In this document: piece after piece, positions 8,442 through 56,273 of the stretch
Layout of the letters: each line of letters starts with the position of its first letter
Numbering within the stretch: position 1 is the stretch's first letter
DNA from: an uncultured Alphaproteobacteria bacterium
GTDB taxonomy: Bacteria > Pseudomonadota > Alphaproteobacteria > RF32 > CAG-239
Direction: 5' to 3'
DNA: 64,000 nt
Assembly (NCBI GenBank): GCA_910587405.1
Contig: CAJUKS010000004.1
Coordinates: forward strand, 5,977 to 69,976
Program-made: the position numbers and the translations under genes
Notes under the pieces: generated by a model
What the model was told of the DNA's origin: nothing
Database searches by the model: none
Seen by the model: the letters and a program-made list of their open reading frames with translations, nothing else

Positions 8442-8517
8442 TGGCAGGGGCAGTAAGATTCGAACTCACGACCCTCGGTTTTGGAGACCGATGCTCTACC
8501 AACTGAGCTATACCCCT
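8442..8517 (-). tRNA. trnW: tRNA-Trp (anticodon CCA)
   Basis: 76-nt cloverleaf folded by hand: acceptor AGGGGTA/TGCCCCT, U8, D-arm GCTC/GAGC, anticodon loop CTCCAAA, T-loop TTCGAAT, discriminator G73, encoded CCA. Confidence 0.9.
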
Positions 8518-8947
8518 ATTTTGCGGCAGTTTGCCGACACGTCTTTCTACATACACAACAATTTAAAATAAATCAAGCACTTTTTACGCCGCCTTTACAA
8601 AAAACGCTTTTGCTGCCGGCTTTTTGCTCACTTTGTCTTCACGGCTGCAACACCTGTTTGCTCAAACCGTTTTCAGTCTAAAAGCTAAACCTCCCCGCAA
8701 CAATTTCCGCTTGCAATTTCCGCCGGGTTCTTTAATATCAGTGCTGCAGCCGGAAATCGGATGCGGAGTATCGTAGCTCCTTTAGAACAAACAAGCAACT
8801 CCTCCAAGGGGAGCTGTCGATATAAGTGTATTTGACATACAACGAATAAGACAGACTGCGTTCTAACAGTTACGAACTCCCCGCCTTGATCTTTTCAGGG
8901 CGGTTTTGTTTTCAATTAATTCAACAAAACCAAGGGAGTTTTTAACA

Positions 8948-9205
8948 ATGAAATCTCAATTGTATCTCAAACGCAAACTCGGGCAGAAACTGTCCGAATA
9001 TCGCCACAATCATCACCTGCGGCTGGAACACGTTACCAAACGGACCGGTATTCCGTGGCAACGGATCGACCGGCTCGAACTGGGTGAAGAAACCGGATGG
9101 CCGGTCTACAAACGGCTGTTGGAATTTTACAACCTGGAAGCGACGGTCGAATTGACGGATGAAGTTCCGTTCGGCCGACCGAAGAACTGCAATCCCGTCA
9201 GCTGA
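8948..9205 (+). CDS. XRE-family helix-turn-helix transcriptional regulator
   Basis: LGQKLSEYRHNHHLRLEHVTKRTGIPWQRIDRLELGEE matches the HTH_XRE pattern; AGGGAG RBS. Confidence 0.5.
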   Translation: MKSQLYLKRKLGQKLSEYRHNHHLRLEHVTKRTGIPWQRIDRLELGEETGWPVYKRLLEFYNLEATVELTDEVPFGRPKNCNPVS

Positions 9206-9259
9206 CAAACATAAAGCGCCGTCATCTGCGGCGCTTTCCCGTTCTTTTGCGGCCACGCC

Positions 9260-10375
9260 CTATCCGTCTTCCAAATGCAGCAGCACGGATATGCTGACCA
9301 TCACCACAATCAGTGCCGGCGTCCATACCGCCAGCATCGCCGGAATGTAACCGTTGATTCCGAAAGCATAAATCACTTGTGACAAAAAATAAACCATAAA
9401 GCCGGTCGAGATGCCGCCGACAATCAAAAACATCACCCCGCCGCGACGATTGTTGGGACGCAGGGCAAAAACGGCCGCCACCAACACCATCGCGCATAAC
9501 AAAAACGGCGAATTCCACAATGACATATAGCGCATCTGATGCCGCAGGGCCGAAAAACCCGCCAACTCGTAAAAACGGATCGTATCCGGCAAGTTCCAAA
9601 AAGAAATCGCTTCCGGATCAATAAAGTTTTCTTTGATGCGCTCAATTGTCAATGTGGTTTCATAGTCCACATTATTGATTTTTTGCACCGGCTGTCCGGC
9701 TTCAAAAATCCTCACGTCTTTCAGTTCAAATTTATTGCCTTTCAGTTCCGCCGCATAAGCCTCCACTCTTTTAAGCAACTGCGACTGGCGGTCCATTTCC
9801 AACACGCTCACTTTTCTAAGCAGCAACACGTCTTCTTCCTGACGCACCGATTTGGCTTCCAACACCAAAAAGGTGTTTTCGTCCACCGCTTCGCGGATCC
9901 ACAACCCCTTGTTGGAAAACAAAACCGCCTTCGGATCCTTCGTCTTAAAACGATAATCCAGCGTCTCATAAACTTCGTACAGATAAGAAGAAACAGGATT
10001 AAGCATCGTAATATTGACAATACCGACCATAAACACGGCCGCCAGCACCGGCGCCAGAAATTCCCAGATCGAAACCCCGGCGGCACGGATAATAACAAAT
10101 TCGTTGCTGCGGCTGACTTTCCAAAACGTAATCATCGCCGCAATCATCATAATAAACGGAAACACCATTTCAAAGGTGCGCGGCAACTTGGAAAAGGCCA
10201 TTTTCAGAATAAAAACCAAATCCACGTCCGGCCGGTCGGCAGTACGGCGTAACAGTTCGATCACTTCAAACATCAGAATAACGCCGGTTACCATCAACAG
10301 AACCGCAATAAAATTGATTAAGATCTGTTTGGTCAGATATCGTCCCAAAATAGAAGTCGGATTCATCGGTTTCAC
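9260..10375 (-). CDS. LptF/LptG-family (YjgP/YjgQ) LPS export permease
   Basis: 371 aa, N-terminal TM bundle + periplasmic beta-jellyroll-like middle + C-terminal TMs, typical YjgP/YjgQ architecture. Confidence 0.7.
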   Translation of the reverse strand: MKPMNPTSILGRYLTKQILINFIAVLLMVTGVILMFEVIELLRRTADRPDVDLVFILKMAFSKLPRTFEMVFPFIMMIAAMITFWKVSRSNEFVIIRAAGVSIWEFLAPVLAAVFMVGIVNITMLNPVSSYLYEVYETLDYRFKTKDPKAVLFSNKGLWIREAVDENTFLVLEAKSVRQEEDVLLLRKVSVLEMDRQSQLLKRVEAYAAELKGNKFELKDVRIFEAGQPVQKINNVDYETTLTIERIKENFIDPEAISFWNLPDTIRFYELAGFSALRHQMRYMSLWNSPFLLCAMVLVAAVFALRPNNRRGGVMFLIVGGISTGFMVYFLSQVIYAFGINGYIPAMLAVWTPALIVVMVSISVLLHLEDG

Positions 10376-10435: not shown

Positions 10436-11101
10436 TTATGCTTCTTGGGCTTCTTTTACCAACGAATCGACCAACGTTTTCAAACCGTTCAGCTGGCGCA
10501 CCCGTTTCATTCGTTCGCCGGAAATGATGCGACGGATTTTCTCCACCGTATCTTCCAGTTCTTCATTAACAACCACATAGTCAAATTCGTCCCAGTGGCT
10601 GATTTTTTCCAAAACCATATTCATACGCTTTTCGATCACTTCGGGGCTGTCGGTCCCGCGACCTTCCAAACGGCGGCGCACTTCTTTGATCGACGGCGGC
10701 AGCAAATAAATCGTCACCGCATCGGCGCCGGCCTTTTCCTTCATCTGACGCGCTCCCATCCAATCGAGATCAAACAACACGTCTTCGCCGACATTGATAA
10801 AACTGTCCACTTCCGAACGTAAAGTTCCGTAACGGTTTCCGTACTGCGAGTCGACATATTCGTAAAAAGCGTCTTCCTTAATCAGCTGATCATACTGCTG
10901 ATCGGTAATAAAGTAATAATCCACCCCGTCAACCTCATTATGACGTTGCGGACGGGTGGTGACCGAAACCGAAAACTTGATATGCGGATCACGGGCAAGA
11001 ATTTCCTTAATGACGGTTCCTTTGCCGGCACCGGACGGCCCTTCGATAATAAACATGGTACCGCGGCGAACCTTACGCAGATAATTAATAACGTCTTCCA
11101 T
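10436..11101 (-). CDS. gmk: guanylate kinase
   Basis: GPSGAGKGT P-loop, YYFITDQQYDQLIKEDAFYEYVDSQYGNRYGT; alternative start at 11056. Confidence 0.9.
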   Translation of the reverse strand: MEDVINYLRKVRRGTMFIIEGPSGAGKGTVIKEILARDPHIKFSVSVTTRPQRHNEVDGVDYYFITDQQYDQLIKEDAFYEYVDSQYGNRYGTLRSEVDSFINVGEDVLFDLDWMGARQMKEKAGADAVTIYLLPPSIKEVRRRLEGRGTDSPEVIEKRMNMVLEKISHWDEFDYVVVNEELEDTVEKIRRIISGERMKRVRQLNGLKTLVDSLVKEAQEA

Positions 11102-11104
11102 TTT

Positions 11105-12007
11105 CTACTCCATATTTTGTACTTGTTCACGCAATTGCTCAATAACCGCTTTTAGTTCCATTCCGCGATTGATAATCTCAATATCCGCCGCTTTGGAACA
11201 AGTTGTGTTGGTTTCGCGATTCAGTTCCTGACACAAAAAGTCGAAACGGCGTCCTAACGTCTGCCCGGCTTCCAGCAATTGCCGCGCTGTTTTGACGTGA
11301 GCTGTCAGACGATCGATTTCTTCGCGAATATCGGCCCGGTTCACCAGCAAAACCGCTTCCTGAGCCAGCCGTTCCTCACTGATCGGATTTCCTTCCAACA
11401 ATTCGGCCAGCTGGGCGGTGAGCTTTTGTTTGAGAGCTGCCGGTTGCAAGGCGGCTTTGCGGGCAATGTCTTTGACCAAAGCTTCAATCCGGTCAACTTG
11501 TTGTTCCAGCACCGACTTAATTTTTGCACCTTCCTGACGGCGATCAAACTGCAACCGCACGCAACATTCTTCAAAACCGGCGCTCAACCGTTGGCGGATC
11601 AACTCGAGTTCTTCCTCGCCAAAACGGTTTTTAACCACTTCAATTACGCCGTTTACCCCCAGCAGCTCACTGGCGGAAGGAGGTGCCAAATCATCGGGAT
11701 GGGCACGGTACAAATCCACCGCGGCACCGGTCAGGCGTTCCAGCAATTCGCGATTGATGTTAACCTCGGTATCGCTGCGTTCAAGCGTCACTTCAAGCGA
11801 AACATTCATATTGCCGCGTTCAAAATAAGCGGCGGCAATATTGCGCAGATTAAGACTGATTTCATCCAACCACGACGGCAGCCGGGTTTTCAGATCCAGA
11901 CTTTTGCCGTTGACGCTTTTAATTTCCCACACCCAGGAAAGCGAAAAGTTTCCCTGTTCCAAACTGCCGCTCTGGCGGGCAAAACCGGTCATACTGGATA
12001 TTTGCAA
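11105..12007 (-). CDS. yicC: YicC-family stress-induced protein
   Basis: SMTGFARQ...EIKSVNGKSLDLKTRLP N-terminus and C-terminal DUF1732-like region; upstream of gmk as in many bacteria. Confidence 0.8.
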   Translation of the reverse strand: MQISSMTGFARQSGSLEQGNFSLSWVWEIKSVNGKSLDLKTRLPSWLDEISLNLRNIAAAYFERGNMNVSLEVTLERSDTEVNINRELLERLTGAAVDLYRAHPDDLAPPSASELLGVNGVIEVVKNRFGEEELELIRQRLSAGFEECCVRLQFDRRQEGAKIKSVLEQQVDRIEALVKDIARKAALQPAALKQKLTAQLAELLEGNPISEERLAQEAVLLVNRADIREEIDRLTAHVKTARQLLEAGQTLGRRFDFLCQELNRETNTTCSKAADIEIINRGMELKAVIEQLREQVQNME

Positions 12008-22083: not shown

Positions 22084-22215
22084 GATCCGTTAAACCTCTT
22101 CCCGCCGACACTCAATTCAACCGATCGGGCATCTGCCTATTTTGGATATTGACATCAGGCTTTTTTGGGGGTATTTTGTCTAAAGCACACAATTATTAAC
22201 TAACAATTTTAAACG

Positions 22216-22650
22216 ATGAAAAATGTGATAACCATTTTAGCGATCCTCACCCTAATCGCCACCGGCATCTGCTTCTACCTCTTTTCTTTTGCCGTTGCCA
22301 TGATTTTCTTTGTCGTCTACCTGATCGTCGTCAGTATTTTCGTATACTGCTACTGGCATGACGAGAAACTTCAGGAACGGTGGCTGCAATCCCCGGTTTT
22401 TCCGGATTCTCCGCAGTTCGAGGACCTGTTTTGGAACATGACGATGTCCAACCAGGATTGGTACATCGAACATATTCTGAAAGAAGAAGGCGTGAAACAG
22501 TTGATTCAAAAGTACGAAACCACGATCCGCGAAATCTGGAACGACCGCGACTGGGAAATCTCCGAAAAGATCGAACGGAGTTCTGTCTATGTGAAACGGC
22601 TGAAATCAATGCTGGCCATACAGGAATTCAACGCATTGCGTCGGGACTGA
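22216..22650 (+). CDS. membrane-anchored hypothetical protein (2 TM + soluble domain)
   Basis: N-terminal hydrophobic helices; terminator-like hairpin 22654-22700. Confidence 0.5.
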   Translation: MKNVITILAILTLIATGICFYLFSFAVAMIFFVVYLIVVSIFVYCYWHDEKLQERWLQSPVFPDSPQFEDLFWNMTMSNQDWYIEHILKEEGVKQLIQKYETTIREIWNDRDWEISEKIERSSVYVKRLKSMLAIQEFNALRRD

Positions 22651-23542: not shown

Positions 23543-23715
23543 CCTTTTCTCCGTTGATGTATTTTTGCTCAACTTACAGCTTTTTAAGACAAAAAACAAC
23601 CGCCCCGCCTCCAAAATAAATCTTTTTTATACTTGACATCAAAATTTTAATTTATATATTAGCCTGCTCAAATTGATTATTCTAAATAATTATTAACAAT
23701 AAAAAACCTATCAAA

Positions 23716-24246
23716 ATGAATCAAAATGTGTTTATTTTTTTAATGCTTGTGTGGGCCTTGTGCAATTTTTCAGCCTGCGGAACCCTGATTTTACGTCGTT
23801 GTACCAAAACTATTCAACAACAACAAAAATGGAAACGCGTTATCAAAAGCAGTGTTTTTCTCAACCTCGGCGCAATGATCGTCTTTTCCGACAGTCTTGT
23901 CGAAAATTTCGGCTTGTTGCTTCTGATGATCGGAAACATCTTCCTGTCCTCATGGAGTATCAAAGCCGTCTGCCGCCAATACGAAAAACAGCTTCGCCGG
24001 CAAAAATTCGCTTTTCGAGTCGATTGGATCAAGCACAACATTGCCTACGGCACGGTTGAAATCGACGGAATCAAGTATCACGCCTTTATTCCTCCGGTAT
24101 GGATGAACGAATACCAGGACGAAAACGGCCGTCTTGTTCCGGGAACTTTTAAAAAATATCCGGTCCGGTCGACACTGTCGGCACAATTCAAACGCTTCGT
24201 TCCTGTTTACGGCGACGGTATGCGGCCTATGGTTGAACTCGGCTGA
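23716..24246 (+). CDS. membrane-anchored hypothetical protein
   Basis: two N-terminal TM helices + 100-aa soluble domain; terminator 24268-24298. Confidence 0.5.
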   Translation: MNQNVFIFLMLVWALCNFSACGTLILRRCTKTIQQQQKWKRVIKSSVFLNLGAMIVFSDSLVENFGLLLLMIGNIFLSSWSIKAVCRQYEKQLRRQKFAFRVDWIKHNIAYGTVEIDGIKYHAFIPPVWMNEYQDENGRLVPGTFKKYPVRSTLSAQFKRFVPVYGDGMRPMVELG

Positions 24247-24428
24247 CCTGTGACAAATTCTGCAAAAGGAGCGGCATTCGCCGTCTCCTTTTTTTATTGC
24301 CGACATTCTGACCCAACCGACCTCTTCCGAAATTGCAGGCATTTTACCAAGCACCGGTTGGAACAACTTGACTTTTTGCCGCGGTTGTTCCATAATTTGT
24401 CCATATTTTAATTATTAATCTAAATACT

Positions 24429-24971
24429 ATGAAAAAATTTATCATTTATCGGCACGGAGAATATGACGATCGTCAAGAACTGACCGCCCAAAGCGCTCAG
24501 GAAATTTTTGCCCGGACTTTGCTAATCAAACAACACATCGGCTGCGCCGGGACGGTCTTTACCTCTCCCGTCTGCCGGGCAGAACAAACCGCGCGCGTCA
24601 TTTCCTTGGCTATGGACAATGCCCGCATTGAAACCGAAGCGCTGTTGGCCGAACATATGTCCGATTATCCTCACGAAGGCAGAGACAGGTTGATCAAACT
24701 CGCCGGAGGACAAAAGTGCGACATCATTGCCGTTGTCTCCCACCGTCCCAACATCAGCCGGATGTTTATGGTCGGCCTCAACCCCGGAATGGAAATTATT
24801 TTTGAGGCTGAAAGCTGGGGAGAGATTTTTGAAAACCTGGGCGGCAATCTCATCGCCCGTTCACAAACAGCCCCTGACGCATCCTTATTGCAGCGTTATT
24901 TCAACCCGGTCTGCAGCGAAGAAGAACTGCAACAATTACGCCGGCTTGACTTTTTGGCGCCACAACTGTAA
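24429..24971 (+). CDS. histidine phosphatase family protein (SixA-like)
   Basis: YRHGEY (RHG catalytic motif) near N-terminus and downstream His (VVSHRPN); TTGACT-17-CATAAT promoter upstream. Confidence 0.7.
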   Translation: MKKFIIYRHGEYDDRQELTAQSAQEIFARTLLIKQHIGCAGTVFTSPVCRAEQTARVISLAMDNARIETEALLAEHMSDYPHEGRDRLIKLAGGQKCDIIAVVSHRPNISRMFMVGLNPGMEIIFEAESWGEIFENLGGNLIARSQTAPDASLLQRYFNPVCSEEELQQLRRLDFLAPQL

Positions 24972-25039: not shown

Positions 25040-25612
25040 TTAACGGCGGGCAAACTTGCCGGCACGTTCTTTGCGGCGCTGTTTTTTCGGATTTTCCCGT
25101 CGGTCACCGTTAAACGGCGGCAACCACGGAACCAGTTCGTTGTTGAACTTCATGTTCACCCGCCAGCCGTGACGATCCTGAGGATTGGGACAACCGGCAT
25201 TGCGTTCGGCACGAATCTCCATGAACTCGGCGATCGACGCATAATCGGGCATATCTTCCGACATGGCACGCAGCGTTCCGGGAACATAGGTCATACGCGG
25301 CATCAAAGCCTGAGCCAGCAGAGCATTGACCGGCCCCTGAAACGAAACTTCCGCACCGCCGCCTTCTTTGTCTTCGATCATATACTCATAACCGTCAAAG
25401 GCAGTGATGATTCTCATATAACCGTTGCCGAGCAGCACCAAGGTGTTGTTGACCGAGCGGCCGATCTCACGCAATGTGATGTGACCTCTTTCCTCTTCTC
25501 CGTCAACATTCCAGCGTTTGCCGTCGCCCTGAGTGATTTTATACATCAGAACTTTGGTGCTCTGAGAGATGTCGAAACGGAAAAAGCAGTGGATGATTTT
25601 TTTCTCTTCCAT
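25040..25612 (-). CDS. hypothetical protein (190 aa)
   Basis: ORF downstream of and co-oriented with metallophosphoesterase gene; no motif recognised. Confidence 0.5.
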   Translation of the reverse strand: MEEKKIIHCFFRFDISQSTKVLMYKITQGDGKRWNVDGEEERGHITLREIGRSVNNTLVLLGNGYMRIITAFDGYEYMIEDKEGGGAEVSFQGPVNALLAQALMPRMTYVPGTLRAMSEDMPDYASIAEFMEIRAERNAGCPNPQDRHGWRVNMKFNNELVPWLPPFNGDRRENPKKQRRKERAGKFARR

Positions 25613-25692
25613 AGTTAGTATAATTTAATTGGTTAATAATTCTTTTGATAAAACCAGTATAACGACAACAAACGACAGAATCAAGTTTTTTG

Positions 25693-53294: not shown

Positions 53295-53759
53295 TTAGTT
53301 GCCGGCTTTAACAACGGTAACGGCACGACGGTTCTGAGCCCAAGCAGCTTCGTTGTTGCCGAGAACAGCCGGTCTTTCTTTACCATAAGAAATGGTAGAG
53401 ATTCTGTTAGCTGCAATTCCCTGAGAAACCAGATAATCTTTTACAGCGCTGGCACGGCGTTCACCCAAAGCCAAGTTGTATTCTCTGGTACCTCTTTCAT
53501 CGCAGTAACCTTGAACAACGACGTCAACGTTTTCGTGTTTTTTCAGCCAGTTAACCTGAGTATCCAGAATTTCGGTAGCATTGTCGCTCAAAGCCGAGCT
53601 GTCGAAAGCAAAGAATACTCTGTCTTCGGCGTTAGCCATAAAGTTGCGTGCATCTCTGGAATCGCATTCGCTGCCGCCGAAGAAACCGCCCATTGAACCG
53701 GTCGATGAACAAGCAGACAACAAAGCAACCACGCAGAACAAACCTAAAAGTTTTTTCAT
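53295..53759 (-). CDS. pal: peptidoglycan-associated lipoprotein Pal (OmpA-like)
   Basis: lipobox LSAC, OmpA C-like domain (YNLALGERRASAVKDYL). Confidence 0.9.
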   Translation of the reverse strand: MKKLLGLFCVVALLSACSSTGSMGGFFGGSECDSRDARNFMANAEDRVFFAFDSSALSDNATEILDTQVNWLKKHENVDVVVQGYCDERGTREYNLALGERRASAVKDYLVSQGIAANRISTISYGKERPAVLGNNEAAWAQNRRAVTVVKAGN

Positions 53760-54150
53760 TTTATTTTCTCCATATGGGTTTCATTTATTAAATAACTAAT
53801 ACATCAGCTAACTTAAGCAATAATAGTTTATTTTTCAATAACAAAAACACAAAAAAGCAAAAAAAATAAAACTTTTTTCCCAATGCTTGATACAACCATC
53901 GCTTTAATTCTGATTTTTCGCTATAAAACCGATTTCAGGCCCGCCGCGTAACCGTTTTTTATATTCCTTTTTTGCGCAATGACTGAGAAACGTTAGCTTT
54001 TTGCTTTATTTTCGCCGCCGTGTCATCATAATATGTTATGTCATGATCCCTGTTTTCCAACCTCAACAATCATTCAAAGTTAATTTTTCGCCCTGCTGCG
54101 GCCGTTTTTTAAAGCAACGGGCGTCTGACAATGTCAGACGCCCGTTAAAA

Positions 54151-54837
54151 CTACAGATAAGCTTTTCTCAATCGGCGGCAGTAATCGGCATCGAAAAACC
54201 CCCACTGATTGTATTGGCAAACGCCGCGGCCGCAGGTAACCGGATACCTTGACGCGCAACCGCCCCATATTTCCGTCAAGCGAACGATAGATTCTCGCAC
54301 CATCGCCAGCAATGCCGGATCGGTTTCCCGCAGAACCGGCGCCGCCGCCGACAAAAATTGCGGCAGACAGGCGTTGGTAAGCCCAAATCTGTCCGCTTCG
54401 GTCACCGTTTTTACAATCGCGGCCAGAGTTTCGCTTTTTCCTGTGGCATAATAAGCCAGCATCTCCGGCCGATACAAAACGGCGATCCCGTCTTCCATCG
54501 CGCTCAAACGATATCTCATGCAGTCGGCAACCAAATGCAGCAACCGCTCTTCCGATCCCACAAAAGATTTGATACGCGGAATAAAAACACGCCAAAAATC
54601 CGAAAGCGTAGCCTCATACGGGAAAAGATCCCGGACCAGCCCAACCGCATGACAGTCGAGCACCTCACGAACTTCCGCATAATTGCCCGGCATTGTTTCC
54701 AACAGCCTTTTCTGAACAACCCGGTGCATTTCATCGACGAGAGCGTTCCATTCTTCCTCCTGTTCCCGATGCCGAAACCATGCCGTCTCGGAAGAAGTGT
54801 TCAACCAGAGAAAAAACTTTTTTAATTTTTCATTCAT
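54151..54837 (-). CDS. hypothetical protein, member A of a local three-gene paralogous family
   Basis: shares S[DE]FW[RT][VA]F[IV] segment with 55759..56073; followed by 31-bp perfect palindrome. Confidence 0.5.
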   Translation of the reverse strand: MNEKLKKFFLWLNTSSETAWFRHREQEEEWNALVDEMHRVVQKRLLETMPGNYAEVREVLDCHAVGLVRDLFPYEATLSDFWRVFIPRIKSFVGSEERLLHLVADCMRYRLSAMEDGIAVLYRPEMLAYYATGKSETLAAIVKTVTEADRFGLTNACLPQFLSAAAPVLRETDPALLAMVRESIVRLTEIWGGCASRYPVTCGRGVCQYNQWGFFDADYCRRLRKAYL

Positions 54838-54967
54838 AATAATAGATTTAAGTTAATAAAAAAAATTCTTTACTTGCCTTAGGCAAACGACCCGTTTTTT
54901 ACCGGCCCTTCATAAAACGAAATCCCAACAATCAGCGCTCTCAATTCGGCTGATCATTTCGGAACGA

Positions 54968-54999
54968 CAAAAAGAGCAGGCTTAAACCTGCTCTTTTTG
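54968..54999. terminator. bidirectional intrinsic terminator
   Basis: agagcagg/cctgctct hairpin flanked by A5/T5. Confidence 0.6.
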
Positions 55000-55022
55000 A
55001 TGTTAGCGTTTGTGGTTACGGG

Positions 55023-55604
55023 TTACGGTTCCATAACCATTCCGCGCCACTGTCTTGCCAACGGCTCGGGAAGTTCGAAACCCTGCCGGCACAGATCGCT
55101 CAACAGATCCATGAACTCTCTGCGCTTTCCGTAAGAACGTTCGGGATAGGCGATCAGAAAAGCGATCACGGCGTCCTGCGTAAACGGAAGCCGGGAGAGC
55201 TTTTCGGCGCTGTCCGGGAACTCGGAGGCCAGAGCCTCGGCGATGGCTTTCTCTTCCGGAGACATCGTCTTGGGCGGCACTTTCATACCTTCGCAGATCT
55301 GCTTCAGTTCCTCAGGAACCTCAAACCGGTTCTTCTCGAGGTCTTCCAGCAGCGCTGCCAGTTTTTCACCGTGGCCTTCCAGCACTTCGGGGAACTTGAT
55401 CAGCATGTCGATAAACTGCTGAGGATTGAACCCCGGATGAGAATCGGCTTCGTCGTAAGAGCTCGGAAAGTTGGCCGCGAATTGCTTCAGCAAAACTTTC
55501 TTCTGAGTGTTCACCGCTGCTTCCACAACCGGATTCTTACCGGCAGCAGCCAGAATTTCACATGCAGCGCCATACAACGCTTCGAAGTTTTGAAATTTCA
55601 TCAT
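55023..55604 (-). CDS. hypothetical protein, member B of paralogous family
   Basis: N-terminus MMKFQNFEALYGAA resembles MNLNCFKQLYAST of 55759..56073. Confidence 0.5.
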   Translation of the reverse strand: MMKFQNFEALYGAACEILAAAGKNPVVEAAVNTQKKVLLKQFAANFPSSYDEADSHPGFNPQQFIDMLIKFPEVLEGHGEKLAALLEDLEKNRFEVPEELKQICEGMKVPPKTMSPEEKAIAEALASEFPDSAEKLSRLPFTQDAVIAFLIAYPERSYGKRREFMDLLSDLCRQGFELPEPLARQWRGMVMEP

Positions 55605-55758
55605 ACTAAATGATTTTTATGTTTAACAATTGAGAAAATAATTCGAATTGGCTTTTAATGTAACAATTTTAGACAAAACTGTCAACAGAAAATATTGCAA
55701 ATTTAAAGCGCCGTCAGCTGACGGCGCTTTAAATGTCTTAAATGACGGAAACAGTCGC

Positions 55759-56073
55759 CTATTTAAACCACATGTACTTTTCCGTATTTCCGGCCAGCAG
55801 CTCGGGATATTCATCCATCAGCCGGACATACAGTTCTCGGTCGGCAGCTTCCATCTGACGCACATCTTCTTCCGACTTCGGAAAAGAGGCGTCAAACATT
55901 TCCTTAAGCACTTTTCGCTGACTGCGGGCGTTCTCTTCGATTCCTTTCCGCATGGCACTCCAGGCGCTGAGAGAATTTTCCACATCATAAACAAATGCCG
56001 TCCAAAACTCGGATAACAGACTTTCCGGCTGGAAGGTGCTGGCGTAAAGTTGCTTAAAACAGTTCAAATTCAT
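55759..56073 (-). CDS. hypothetical protein, member C of paralogous family
   Basis: see A and B; followed by 34-bp perfect palindrome 55701-55734. Confidence 0.5.
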   Translation of the reverse strand: MNLNCFKQLYASTFQPESLLSEFWTAFVYDVENSLSAWSAMRKGIEENARSQRKVLKEMFDASFPKSEEDVRQMEAADRELYVRLMDEYPELLAGNTEKYMWFK

Positions 56074-56273
56074 AACAGTAGATTTAATAATTAATAACTG
56101 TCGTCAATATATATTTTTTTGTCTTTTTGGTCAAGTTATTTTATCGACCGTTGCCACCTCTTTTTACAAACAAAATACCGGCCGTTTCCACGACCGGTAT
56201 TTTACGGCACTTTCAACGGAACTGCCGCGGGAAAACTTCCGTTTTAAAAGTTCCCCGCAGCAATAACCGTTAC

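Follow-up and report, generated by a model that had tools for sequence, protein, structure and literature searches.

A clade-restricted family of small, predicted helical proteins in the variable slot upstream of pal in uncultured gut Alphaproteobacteria

The genes of the Tol-Pal system in Proteobacteria usually form the cluster ybgC-tolQRA-tolB-pal-cpoB, in which tolB lies upstream of pal. In the stretch of DNA considered here, 64,000 nucleotides of contig CAJUKS010000004.1 from an uncultured Alphaproteobacteria bacterium and hereafter called the window, tolB is not adjacent to pal, and the slot upstream of pal contains three small genes, designated A, B and C, which are the subject of this report. 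The slot and its boundaries are made up as follows.

56274 to 58970, minus strand: ppdK, the upstream boundary of the slot, here and in many related species
55759 to 56073, minus strand: gene C, an open reading frame (ORF) of 104 amino acids
55023 to 55604, minus strand: gene B, an ORF of 193 amino acids
54151 to 54837, minus strand: gene A, an ORF of 228 amino acids
53295 to 53759, minus strand: pal, with an OmpA domain (E 1.9e-23), the conserved downstream anchor of the variable slot

Read along the minus strand the order is ppdK, C, B, A, pal, cpoB, tilS and ftsH, with ppdK, PDT, an RNase_T-like gene and the ATP synthase flanking the three genes on one side and pal, cpoB, tilS and ftsH on the other. 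An earlier reading of the window by a model, the original prediction, had described three co-oriented ORFs of 228, 193 and 104 amino acids beside an intact pal-cpoB pair, and both statements are borne out, the former, with its coordinates and lengths, by the ORF map and the latter by the OmpA and TPR/YfiO domains encoded directly downstream, those of the cpoB product having been found by a Pfam scan. No TolB-sized candidate adjoins pal or appears on the ORF map of the 64-kb window, a map that was not fully scanned with Pfam. The three genes resemble tolB in lying directly upstream of pal on the same strand, but their products have no signal peptide and no TolB_N/PD40 beta-propeller, are all-helical and have less than half the size of TolB, and a terminator-like hairpin lies between the genes and pal.

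Two further kinds of known system invite comparison. Immunity-protein arrays of the Imm, SUKH, CdiI or Tsi type resemble the locus in consisting of small, acidic, mostly helical, tandem and divergent paralogues in a variable slot, and the original prediction had suggested orphan immunity genes, as one of two alternatives, from the tandem array of small, divergent, helical paralogues. Here, however, no toxin or secretion marker is adjacent, no Imm family is matched, B and C are single-copy syntenic genes and the whole family belongs to one clade. Helical-repeat binding proteins such as mTERF, TPR and 14-3-3-like proteins offer the nearest shapes only, the likeness being one of all-alpha, repeated multi-helix units capped by prolines. 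The explanation favoured here, at a probability of roughly 0.55, is that A, B and C are functional diverged paralogues in a variable slot beside pal, in an envelope- or Tol-Pal-linked context.

How closely, then, are the three genes related to one another? On sequence comparison, A, B and C are diverged paralogues of one small helical family, and the relationship is clearest for B and C, which match each other by BLASTP (E 8e-9), by a Smith-Waterman shuffle test (z=11) and, when alignments of their orthologues are compared, by hhalign (93%, E 2.4e-7). B also carries an internal repeat, in which amino acids 31-100 match 114-182 at 31% identity (E 1e-9, shuffle z=13), and both copies, together with the C module of all orthologues, can be aligned with very few gaps. 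The module so aligned spans about 75 amino acids, is all-helical and follows the pattern Q-K-K-x-L...F-x-x-[N/x]-F-P-x-S...P-x-F...[F/Y]-P-E-L-L-x-G-x-E-K-L, in which two prolines and one glycine are invariant or nearly so and no conserved residue of a catalytic type stands out. An N-terminal motif, M-x-F-x-N-F-E-x-L-Y-G, reads MKFQNFEALYG in B and MNLNCFKQLYAS in C, and the signature that the original prediction had seen in the two proteins (MMKFQNFEALYGAA and MNLNCFKQLYASTF) is a genuine family motif. The two modules of B lie as follows.

55293 to 55526, minus strand: B module 1, amino acids 27-104, the better conserved copy across six orthologues
55044 to 55265, minus strand: B module 2, amino acids 114-187, the more divergent copy

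B is composed of the N-terminal motif and two tandem modules and matches the module hidden Markov model (HMM) with an E value of 3e-46, while C (E 8e-23) has the N-terminal motif, an insert of about 20 amino acids and one module, with a C-terminus shorter than that of its orthologues of 120-122 amino acids. A has one module with an insertion and a C-terminal extension, and its N-terminus (MNEKLKKFF) is a poor fit to the family motif. The six B orthologues are 53-88% identical overall, with 62% of columns invariant in the N-terminal motif, 49% in module 1 and 27% in module 2. The architecture varies further among relatives: the 347-amino acid protein P0024 (locus L089, 163-1206) consists of two complete units of N-terminal motif, module and tail fused in tandem, and at L095 (181-978) two family genes lie 4 bp apart.

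The attachment of A to this family is of a different kind. In pairwise comparison A has no significant similarity to B or C by BLASTP or by shuffling (z=0.6 and 2.9), and an early A profile built from three or four close sequences gave hhalign values of only 12%, 0.2% and 0.4% against the C family, the B family and the module, and 19% against the long subfamily. The link surfaced only once the homologue from locus L099 had joined the profile. With distant homologues added, the A profile (A11) matches the long module subfamily (A12) at 90.9% with an E value of 1.2e-6 over 128 columns, its score of 47.4 standing against a maximum of 16-21 in 200 column shuffles and 12 in a reversed control, and amino acids 29-134 of A match the 54-member family alignment at 68% (E 4.7e-5). 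The region of A concerned is the following.

54322 to 54738, minus strand: the region of A that aligns to the long subfamily by hhalign, amino acids 34-172

In this register QKRLLETMPGNYAEV of A pairs with the module's QKKxL..NFPxSxxEA and SFVGSEERLLHLV with PELLxGxEKLxxL. Genes of the A type and module genes also adjoin each other in three lineages, in the order C-B-A in the window, C-A-B' at L008 and A-mod-mod at L099. A is a divergent member of the same superfamily, placed there by profile-profile comparison only. The proposal of three tandem paralogues therefore stands plainly for B and C, whose similarity is significant, and for A at the profile level alone, with nothing in the pairwise tests. 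The signature once thought to join A and C (EATLSDFW and ESLLSEFW) did not survive, as the corresponding hhalign value is only 12% and the pairing is not the register of the final family alignment of A.

Two observations on A may be added. Residues 192-220 (54178-54264), CASRYPVTCGRGVCQYNQWGFFDADYC, are rich in cysteine in the window, and the segment is found in L009 and L010 and, with fewer cysteines, in L099, and is absent from the L008 homologue. There is also a direct repeat of 20 nucleotides, 18 of them identical, at 54832-54851 and 56068-56087, which on the coding strand reads TTAAATCTAYTRTTATGAAT. It spans the start codons of both A and C and could be either left over from the duplication or an initiation context that the two genes share.

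A, B and C are real genes under purifying selection that evolve faster than their housekeeping neighbours, a conclusion that follows from the ratio of nonsynonymous to synonymous substitution rates (dN/dS), 0.14-0.32, and from the existence of orthologues. The ratios were obtained by comparing the window with L009 and L010, near-identical loci from metagenome-assembled genomes (MAGs) in which Pal is 100% identical, and amount to 0.14-0.18 for A, 0.29-0.32 for B and 0.15-0.29 for C. Among the neighbours, ppdK, pal, cpoB and ftsH have ratios of 0-0.03 and tilS one of 0.10-0.12. Nucleotide identity to the conspecific MAGs, about 95% in the flanks, declines only to about 85% over the three genes and does so with no sharp boundary, which speaks against a hypervariable allele swap. 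The orthologues of C are 85-99% identical in the close set (P0014-17), 66% in L008 and 49% in L001, and the homologues of A are 86-100% identical in the close set, 40% in L008 (201 amino acids) and 35% in L099 and L100 (232 amino acids).

The family is small and its distribution narrow. Searches of A, B and C against Pfam, NCBIfam, PADLOC and PHROG gave no match, and among 54 family members no Pfam family matched more than 2, all far below cutoffs and none of them an Imm family. A word-indexed search of 5.8 billion clusters returned 9 relatives of B, 4 of A and 5 of C, all unnamed or labelled 'hypothetical protein' and all from gut MAGs. An exhaustive HMMER search of 1.84 billion representatives with the module profile produced 40 matches at E<=1e-3, most of them 105-250 amino acids long and sharing the N-terminal motif; a few others are long, repetitive and apparently spurious, of which two (P0046 and P0053) were inspected and the three longest were left unread. 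A metagenome scan with the A alignment recovered the already known contig only. More than 1000 contigs on record carry one B sequence, P0003, and six of these loci, taken from different samples, were read. Where a member could be placed, its source is a gut or faecal metagenome or a MAG labelled Alphaproteobacteria. The profile search that the original prediction proposed has thus returned a tiny, clade-restricted family of 40 representatives, and its alternative suggestion, a lineage-specific expanding family, is supported by tandem duplication, by the internal duplication of B and by the fusion in P0024, with the family confined, as sampled, to uncultured gut Alphaproteobacteria. The word orphan fits in that no Pfam or NCBIfam annotation applies; it does not fit the distribution, as orthologues exist in many related species. 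Other origins were also considered and set aside: for a phage origin, tblastn of A and B against 50,697 phage records, PHROGs and an IMG/VR scan all gave nothing, and for a defence system a PADLOC search of the genes likewise gave nothing.

The position of the family was followed in 80 species-representative loci of 16 kb, fetched with Pal as bait at 74-100% Pal identity. These species carry labels such as 'uncultured Azospirillum sp.', 'Alphaproteobacteria bacterium' and Candidatus Scatocola, come from the gut or faeces of humans, ruminants, chickens and rabbits, and probably correspond to the gut lineage of the RF32/CAG-239 type. Module-family genes were detected in about 30 of the 80, in every case upstream of pal, on its strand and nowhere else in the locus. 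Contexts found independently of pal agree, with 7 of the 7 informative ones upstream of pal, one of these beside a Pal fragment that is 60% identical over a partial match of 67 amino acids. P0024 is a possible exception, lying on a 2.6-kb contig beside a gene whose translation, read by eye, resembles pyruvate:ferredoxin oxidoreductase. In more distant species single-module forms of 117-141 amino acids stand directly upstream of pal (L018, L027, L031 and L039), and pal keeps the module gene as its neighbour in loci whose far flank is not ppdK but rpoC (L031, L072) or an autotransporter (L016, L031).

Within this slot the three genes behave differently. B and C have been passed down vertically, each in single copy and in conserved synteny, the arrangement ppdK-C-B-pal without A being found in L001-L007, L011 and L015, whereas A is patchy in its presence and changes its position. 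Conserved single-copy genes in relatives, the outcome that the original prediction had regarded as speaking against itself, are therefore what was found for B and C and not for A. The absence of tolB beside pal looks like a property of the clade rather than of this window, because no match to TolB or PD40 was obtained in tested representatives of the families that recur upstream of pal in the 80 species; tolB is indeed not adjacent, but the arrangement appears to be clade-wide and not a local replacement of tolB.

The slot itself is variable, the interval upstream of pal ranging from about 0.3 to more than 5 kb across relatives. In relatives without a family member (L019-L088) it holds, 0.3-5 kb upstream of pal, other families without a Pfam match: F2 and F3, of about 250 amino acids, mutually related at 70% by hhalign and often in tandem; F19, of about 225 amino acids; and F16, of about 680 amino acids, with F17, of about 400 amino acids, where the sequence HELYHSLQ contains an HExxH motif. 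Autotransporters of about 1000 amino acids occur in the slot beside family members at L016 (4812-7706, minus strand) and L031 (4155-7217, plus strand), with beta-domain matches of E 1e-27 to 1e-30. At L099 (2921-9731; the island of L100 lies at 3776-9731) ppdK and pal are separated by a co-oriented island of 7 kb that encodes an HD-domain protein, an ORF of 136 amino acids, an A homologue, two module-family proteins, a lipoprotein-like protein of 402 amino acids with a Phage_lysozyme domain (E 2e-13) and two F2-type proteins, and at L100 an ORF of 228 amino acids without a Pfam match replaces the first two of these genes. One F2-type protein in the two islands has a sub-threshold match to the TcdA/TcdB pore domain (E 0.001, 17.9 bits against a cutoff of 27). 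In the species of P0003 (L001-L006 at about 6200-7050, and L011) some 900 bp of purine-rich, low-complexity sequence with inconsistent ORF calls lie between ppdK and the C orthologue, a stretch that is absent from the window.

What the proteins look like is in keeping with binding. The AlphaFold2 (AF2) model of B is all-alpha with 13 helices, a predicted local distance difference test score (pLDDT) of 82.6 and a predicted template-modelling score of 0.63, whereas that of A, also all-alpha, is unreliable at pLDDT 50.8 and too poor for a structure search; the helical character expected from the sequence is confirmed to this extent. Structure searches with B gave nothing significant by Foldseek, the best match in the PDB being 14-3-3 (E 0.67, TM about 0.2) and the best in BFVD having an E value of 1.3, and a sequence-profile search of the PDB gave best matches at E>=0.2, likewise non-significant. 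Structure prediction has thus provided a usable fold for B with no significant PDB or BFVD neighbour, and an unreliable model for A. By eye the module's K-F-P-E-L-L-x-G-x-E-K-L recalls the mTERF repeat without a significant match, and mTERF was rejected as an assignment: PF02536 reaches E 0.088 (12 bits against a cutoff of 23) with B only, 1 of the 54 members, and mTERF chains in the PDB reach E 0.78 and are not among the Foldseek matches. B and C are acidic (isoelectric points 4.9 and 4.8) and hydrophilic, and no signal peptide, lipoprotein signal, membrane or hydrophobic segment was found in either. Such acidic soluble proteins are probably binding proteins, which would act without catalysis and bind a partner through the N-terminal motif and the first module, and, given the lasting linkage to pal, the context most likely involves a partner or a regulatory role related to the envelope or to Tol-Pal.

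Signals for transcription around the three genes are the following.

56172 to 56203, minus strand: hairpin after ppdK, terminator-like, -22.3 kcal/mol, z -5.1
56106 to 56134, minus strand: promoter-like site upstream of C, TTGACC-17-TATATT, 10/12, a consensus match only
56084 to 56091, minus strand: ATTATTAA element in the leader of C, with variants in the leaders of A, B and most orthologues
55701 to 55734, minus strand: perfect 17+17 palindrome after C with A-run and T-run flanks, bidirectional terminator-like, -23.6 kcal/mol, z -6.3
55657 to 55685, minus strand: promoter-like site upstream of B, TTGACA-17-TACATT with TG, sigma-70-type, 10/12 matches
54963 to 55004, minus strand: hairpin with T-run after B, intrinsic terminator-like, -23.9 kcal/mol, z -6.8
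54116 to 54146, minus strand: 15+15 palindrome after A, terminator-like with a weak U-tract, -27.1 kcal/mol, z -6.5

The palindromes reported earlier after A and C are real, as judged by an inverted-repeat scan and folding energies, and since each is unique in the window they are read as terminator-like hairpins and not as members of a repeat family such as REP-like elements. The hairpins after ppdK, C and B have the A-runs and U-runs typical of bidirectional intrinsic terminators, while pal is separated from A by the hairpin of -27 kcal/mol and a 390-bp AT-rich spacer. Because a hairpin follows each gene and promoter-like sites precede B and C, the three genes look like separate transcription units, and TTGACA-type sites were also seen by eye upstream of the orthologues in L007, L016, L031 and L039. 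None of the three has a Shine-Dalgarno sequence, which is no special feature given that about half of the genes in the window also lack one.

Given this arrangement, is the association with pal one of function or only of place? In a reading of the second kind the genes are passengers of a gene-turnover hotspot, with a cytoplasmic role unrelated to pal and a position that reflects vertical inheritance in an insertion-tolerant slot. It is possible, although on balance doubtful, and differs from the favoured explanation only in the absence of a functional linkage; it explains the position nearly as well, and the data separate the two poorly. It draws on the range of the ppdK-pal interval (about 0.3 to more than 5 kb) and the at least six unrelated unannotated families that the interval holds, on the nearby IS200-type transposase of L008, the autotransporters and the lysozyme lipoprotein, on the terminators that each gene has of its own with promoter-like sites for B and C, and on a gene order that shifts between lineages (C-B-A, C-A-B and A-mod-mod), but it sits less well with a family that adjoins pal whether the flank is ppdK, rpoC or an autotransporter, at a Pal divergence down to 60% in the partial match over 67 amino acids. 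Several points weigh against the functional, pal-linked paralogues favoured here. In more than half of the related species no family member could be detected upstream of pal, the place being taken by other unannotated families, so that a hotspot fits as well as a functional partnership; most loci were baited with Pal, and copies elsewhere in those genomes would be missed; Pal is a lipoprotein that faces the periplasm, whereas the proteins of the family look cytoplasmic; and the strong hairpins between the genes and pal would make co-transcription with pal unlikely. The promoter-like sites are no commoner in the region than in shuffled sequence, the link of A to the family is a profile-profile comparison of shallow alignments (effective number of sequences about 2), and the function and the partner are a matter of inference.

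It is unlikely that the proteins are orphan immunity or antitoxin-like factors, left over from a polymorphic toxin-immunity locus and retained against the toxins of competitors. In favour of such a reading, the genes are tandem, divergent paralogues that encode small, acidic, helical proteins and evolve roughly 10-fold faster in dN/dS than the housekeeping neighbours, the content of the slot differs between species, and in L099 and L100 a family member directly precedes the phage-lysozyme lipoprotein of 402 amino acids, with the F2-type protein with a sub-threshold TcdA/TcdB-pore match as a neighbour. Tandem divergent paralogues are indeed present, by the homology of B and C and for A at the profile level, but the hypervariability and wide spread of such arrays are not seen, dN/dS being below 0.33 and the family restricted to one clade, with presence and absence within species not surveyed systematically. 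No toxin, no Rhs, PAAR, VgrG, CdiA or LXG domain and no defence domain was found, either over about 10 kb around the genes in the window or among the tested neighbours in related loci. The earlier remark that no toxin gene is nearby agrees with this, and no polymorphic-toxin locus was seen beside a homologue among the tested neighbouring genes of related loci. There the Pfam matches are to housekeeping, autotransporter, HD and phage-lysozyme domains only, and the large genes beside family members, considered as toxins, proved to be rpoC and autotransporters. No Pfam Imm family matches any of the 54 members, across species B and C occur in single copy and in synteny, with 62% of the columns of the N-terminal motif and 49% of those of module 1 invariant, and one B sequence occurs on more than 1000 contigs. 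A protein without a signal peptide could not protect against a muramidase that acts in the periplasm, such as the lysozyme lipoprotein of L099. Immunity families usually spread widely, whereas this one turned up only in gut or faecal metagenomes and in MAGs with the label Alphaproteobacteria. With toxin and delivery domains missing from the tested flanks, no Imm match, purifying selection and conserved orthologues, the orphan immunity array of the original prediction is not upheld. Least likely of the readings considered is that the proteins are secreted, host-directed effectors of a gut symbiont with the N-terminal motif as export signal. The host-associated, uncultured bacteria, a lineage-specific family of helical repeats with a conserved extreme N-terminus, and the autotransporters and HExxH family in the slot of some species lend it some colour, but no genes for a secretion apparatus were seen in the loci fetched, the proteins have neither a Sec nor a lipoprotein signal, and purifying selection is strongest on the N-terminal motif and module 1, as expected of an intracellular binding interface.

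A few observations concern other parts of the loci. ATTATTAA occurs in 8 copies in the window against 2.9 expected, a number that no shuffle reached; among them are those at 56084-56091, 22192-22199, 23689-23696, 24411-24418 and 25633-25640. Five copies lie 10-27 nucleotides upstream of the start codons of small ORFs without Shine-Dalgarno sequences, namely C, 22216-22650 (plus strand), 23716-24246 (plus), 24429-24971 (plus) and 25040-25612 (minus). ATTATTAA may be a shared leader or promoter element, and small accessory genes may form a second cluster at 21-26 kb. At L008 the IS200-type transposase (Y1_Tnp, 10860-11447) separates pal from cpoB. A search of the interval for known RNAs gave sub-threshold Rfam matches only, and a sub-threshold match to the CpoB/ybgF thermometer (28 bits against a gathering threshold of 51, E 0.015), lies at 53324-53406 on the minus strand, inside the 3' end of pal and just upstream of cpoB.

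As an object, the family is of an ordinary kind, an unannotated and lineage-specific one whose mildly unusual trait is its persistent adjacency to pal, and the analysis reveals no new mechanism but removes the unsupported label of orphan immunity. A bolder and unlikely extension is that the family, with the other families of the slot, is a new cytoplasmic partner or regulator, specific to the clade, of the envelope-constriction machinery of Pal and CpoB, with pal-cpoB uncoupled from tolQRAB; were it true, it would explain why the family stays with pal through genome rearrangements. If the more general description holds, the family is a good candidate for a new domain of unknown function: it has a defined module, one member has arisen by duplication within the protein, three subtypes are recognised, and it is specific to gut Alphaproteobacteria that are abundant yet uncultured. 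In that case, too, the slot upstream of pal is a place where this clade gathers lineage-specific, unannotated genes. Such a description would be of use in annotating these MAGs and in choosing structural or interaction targets.

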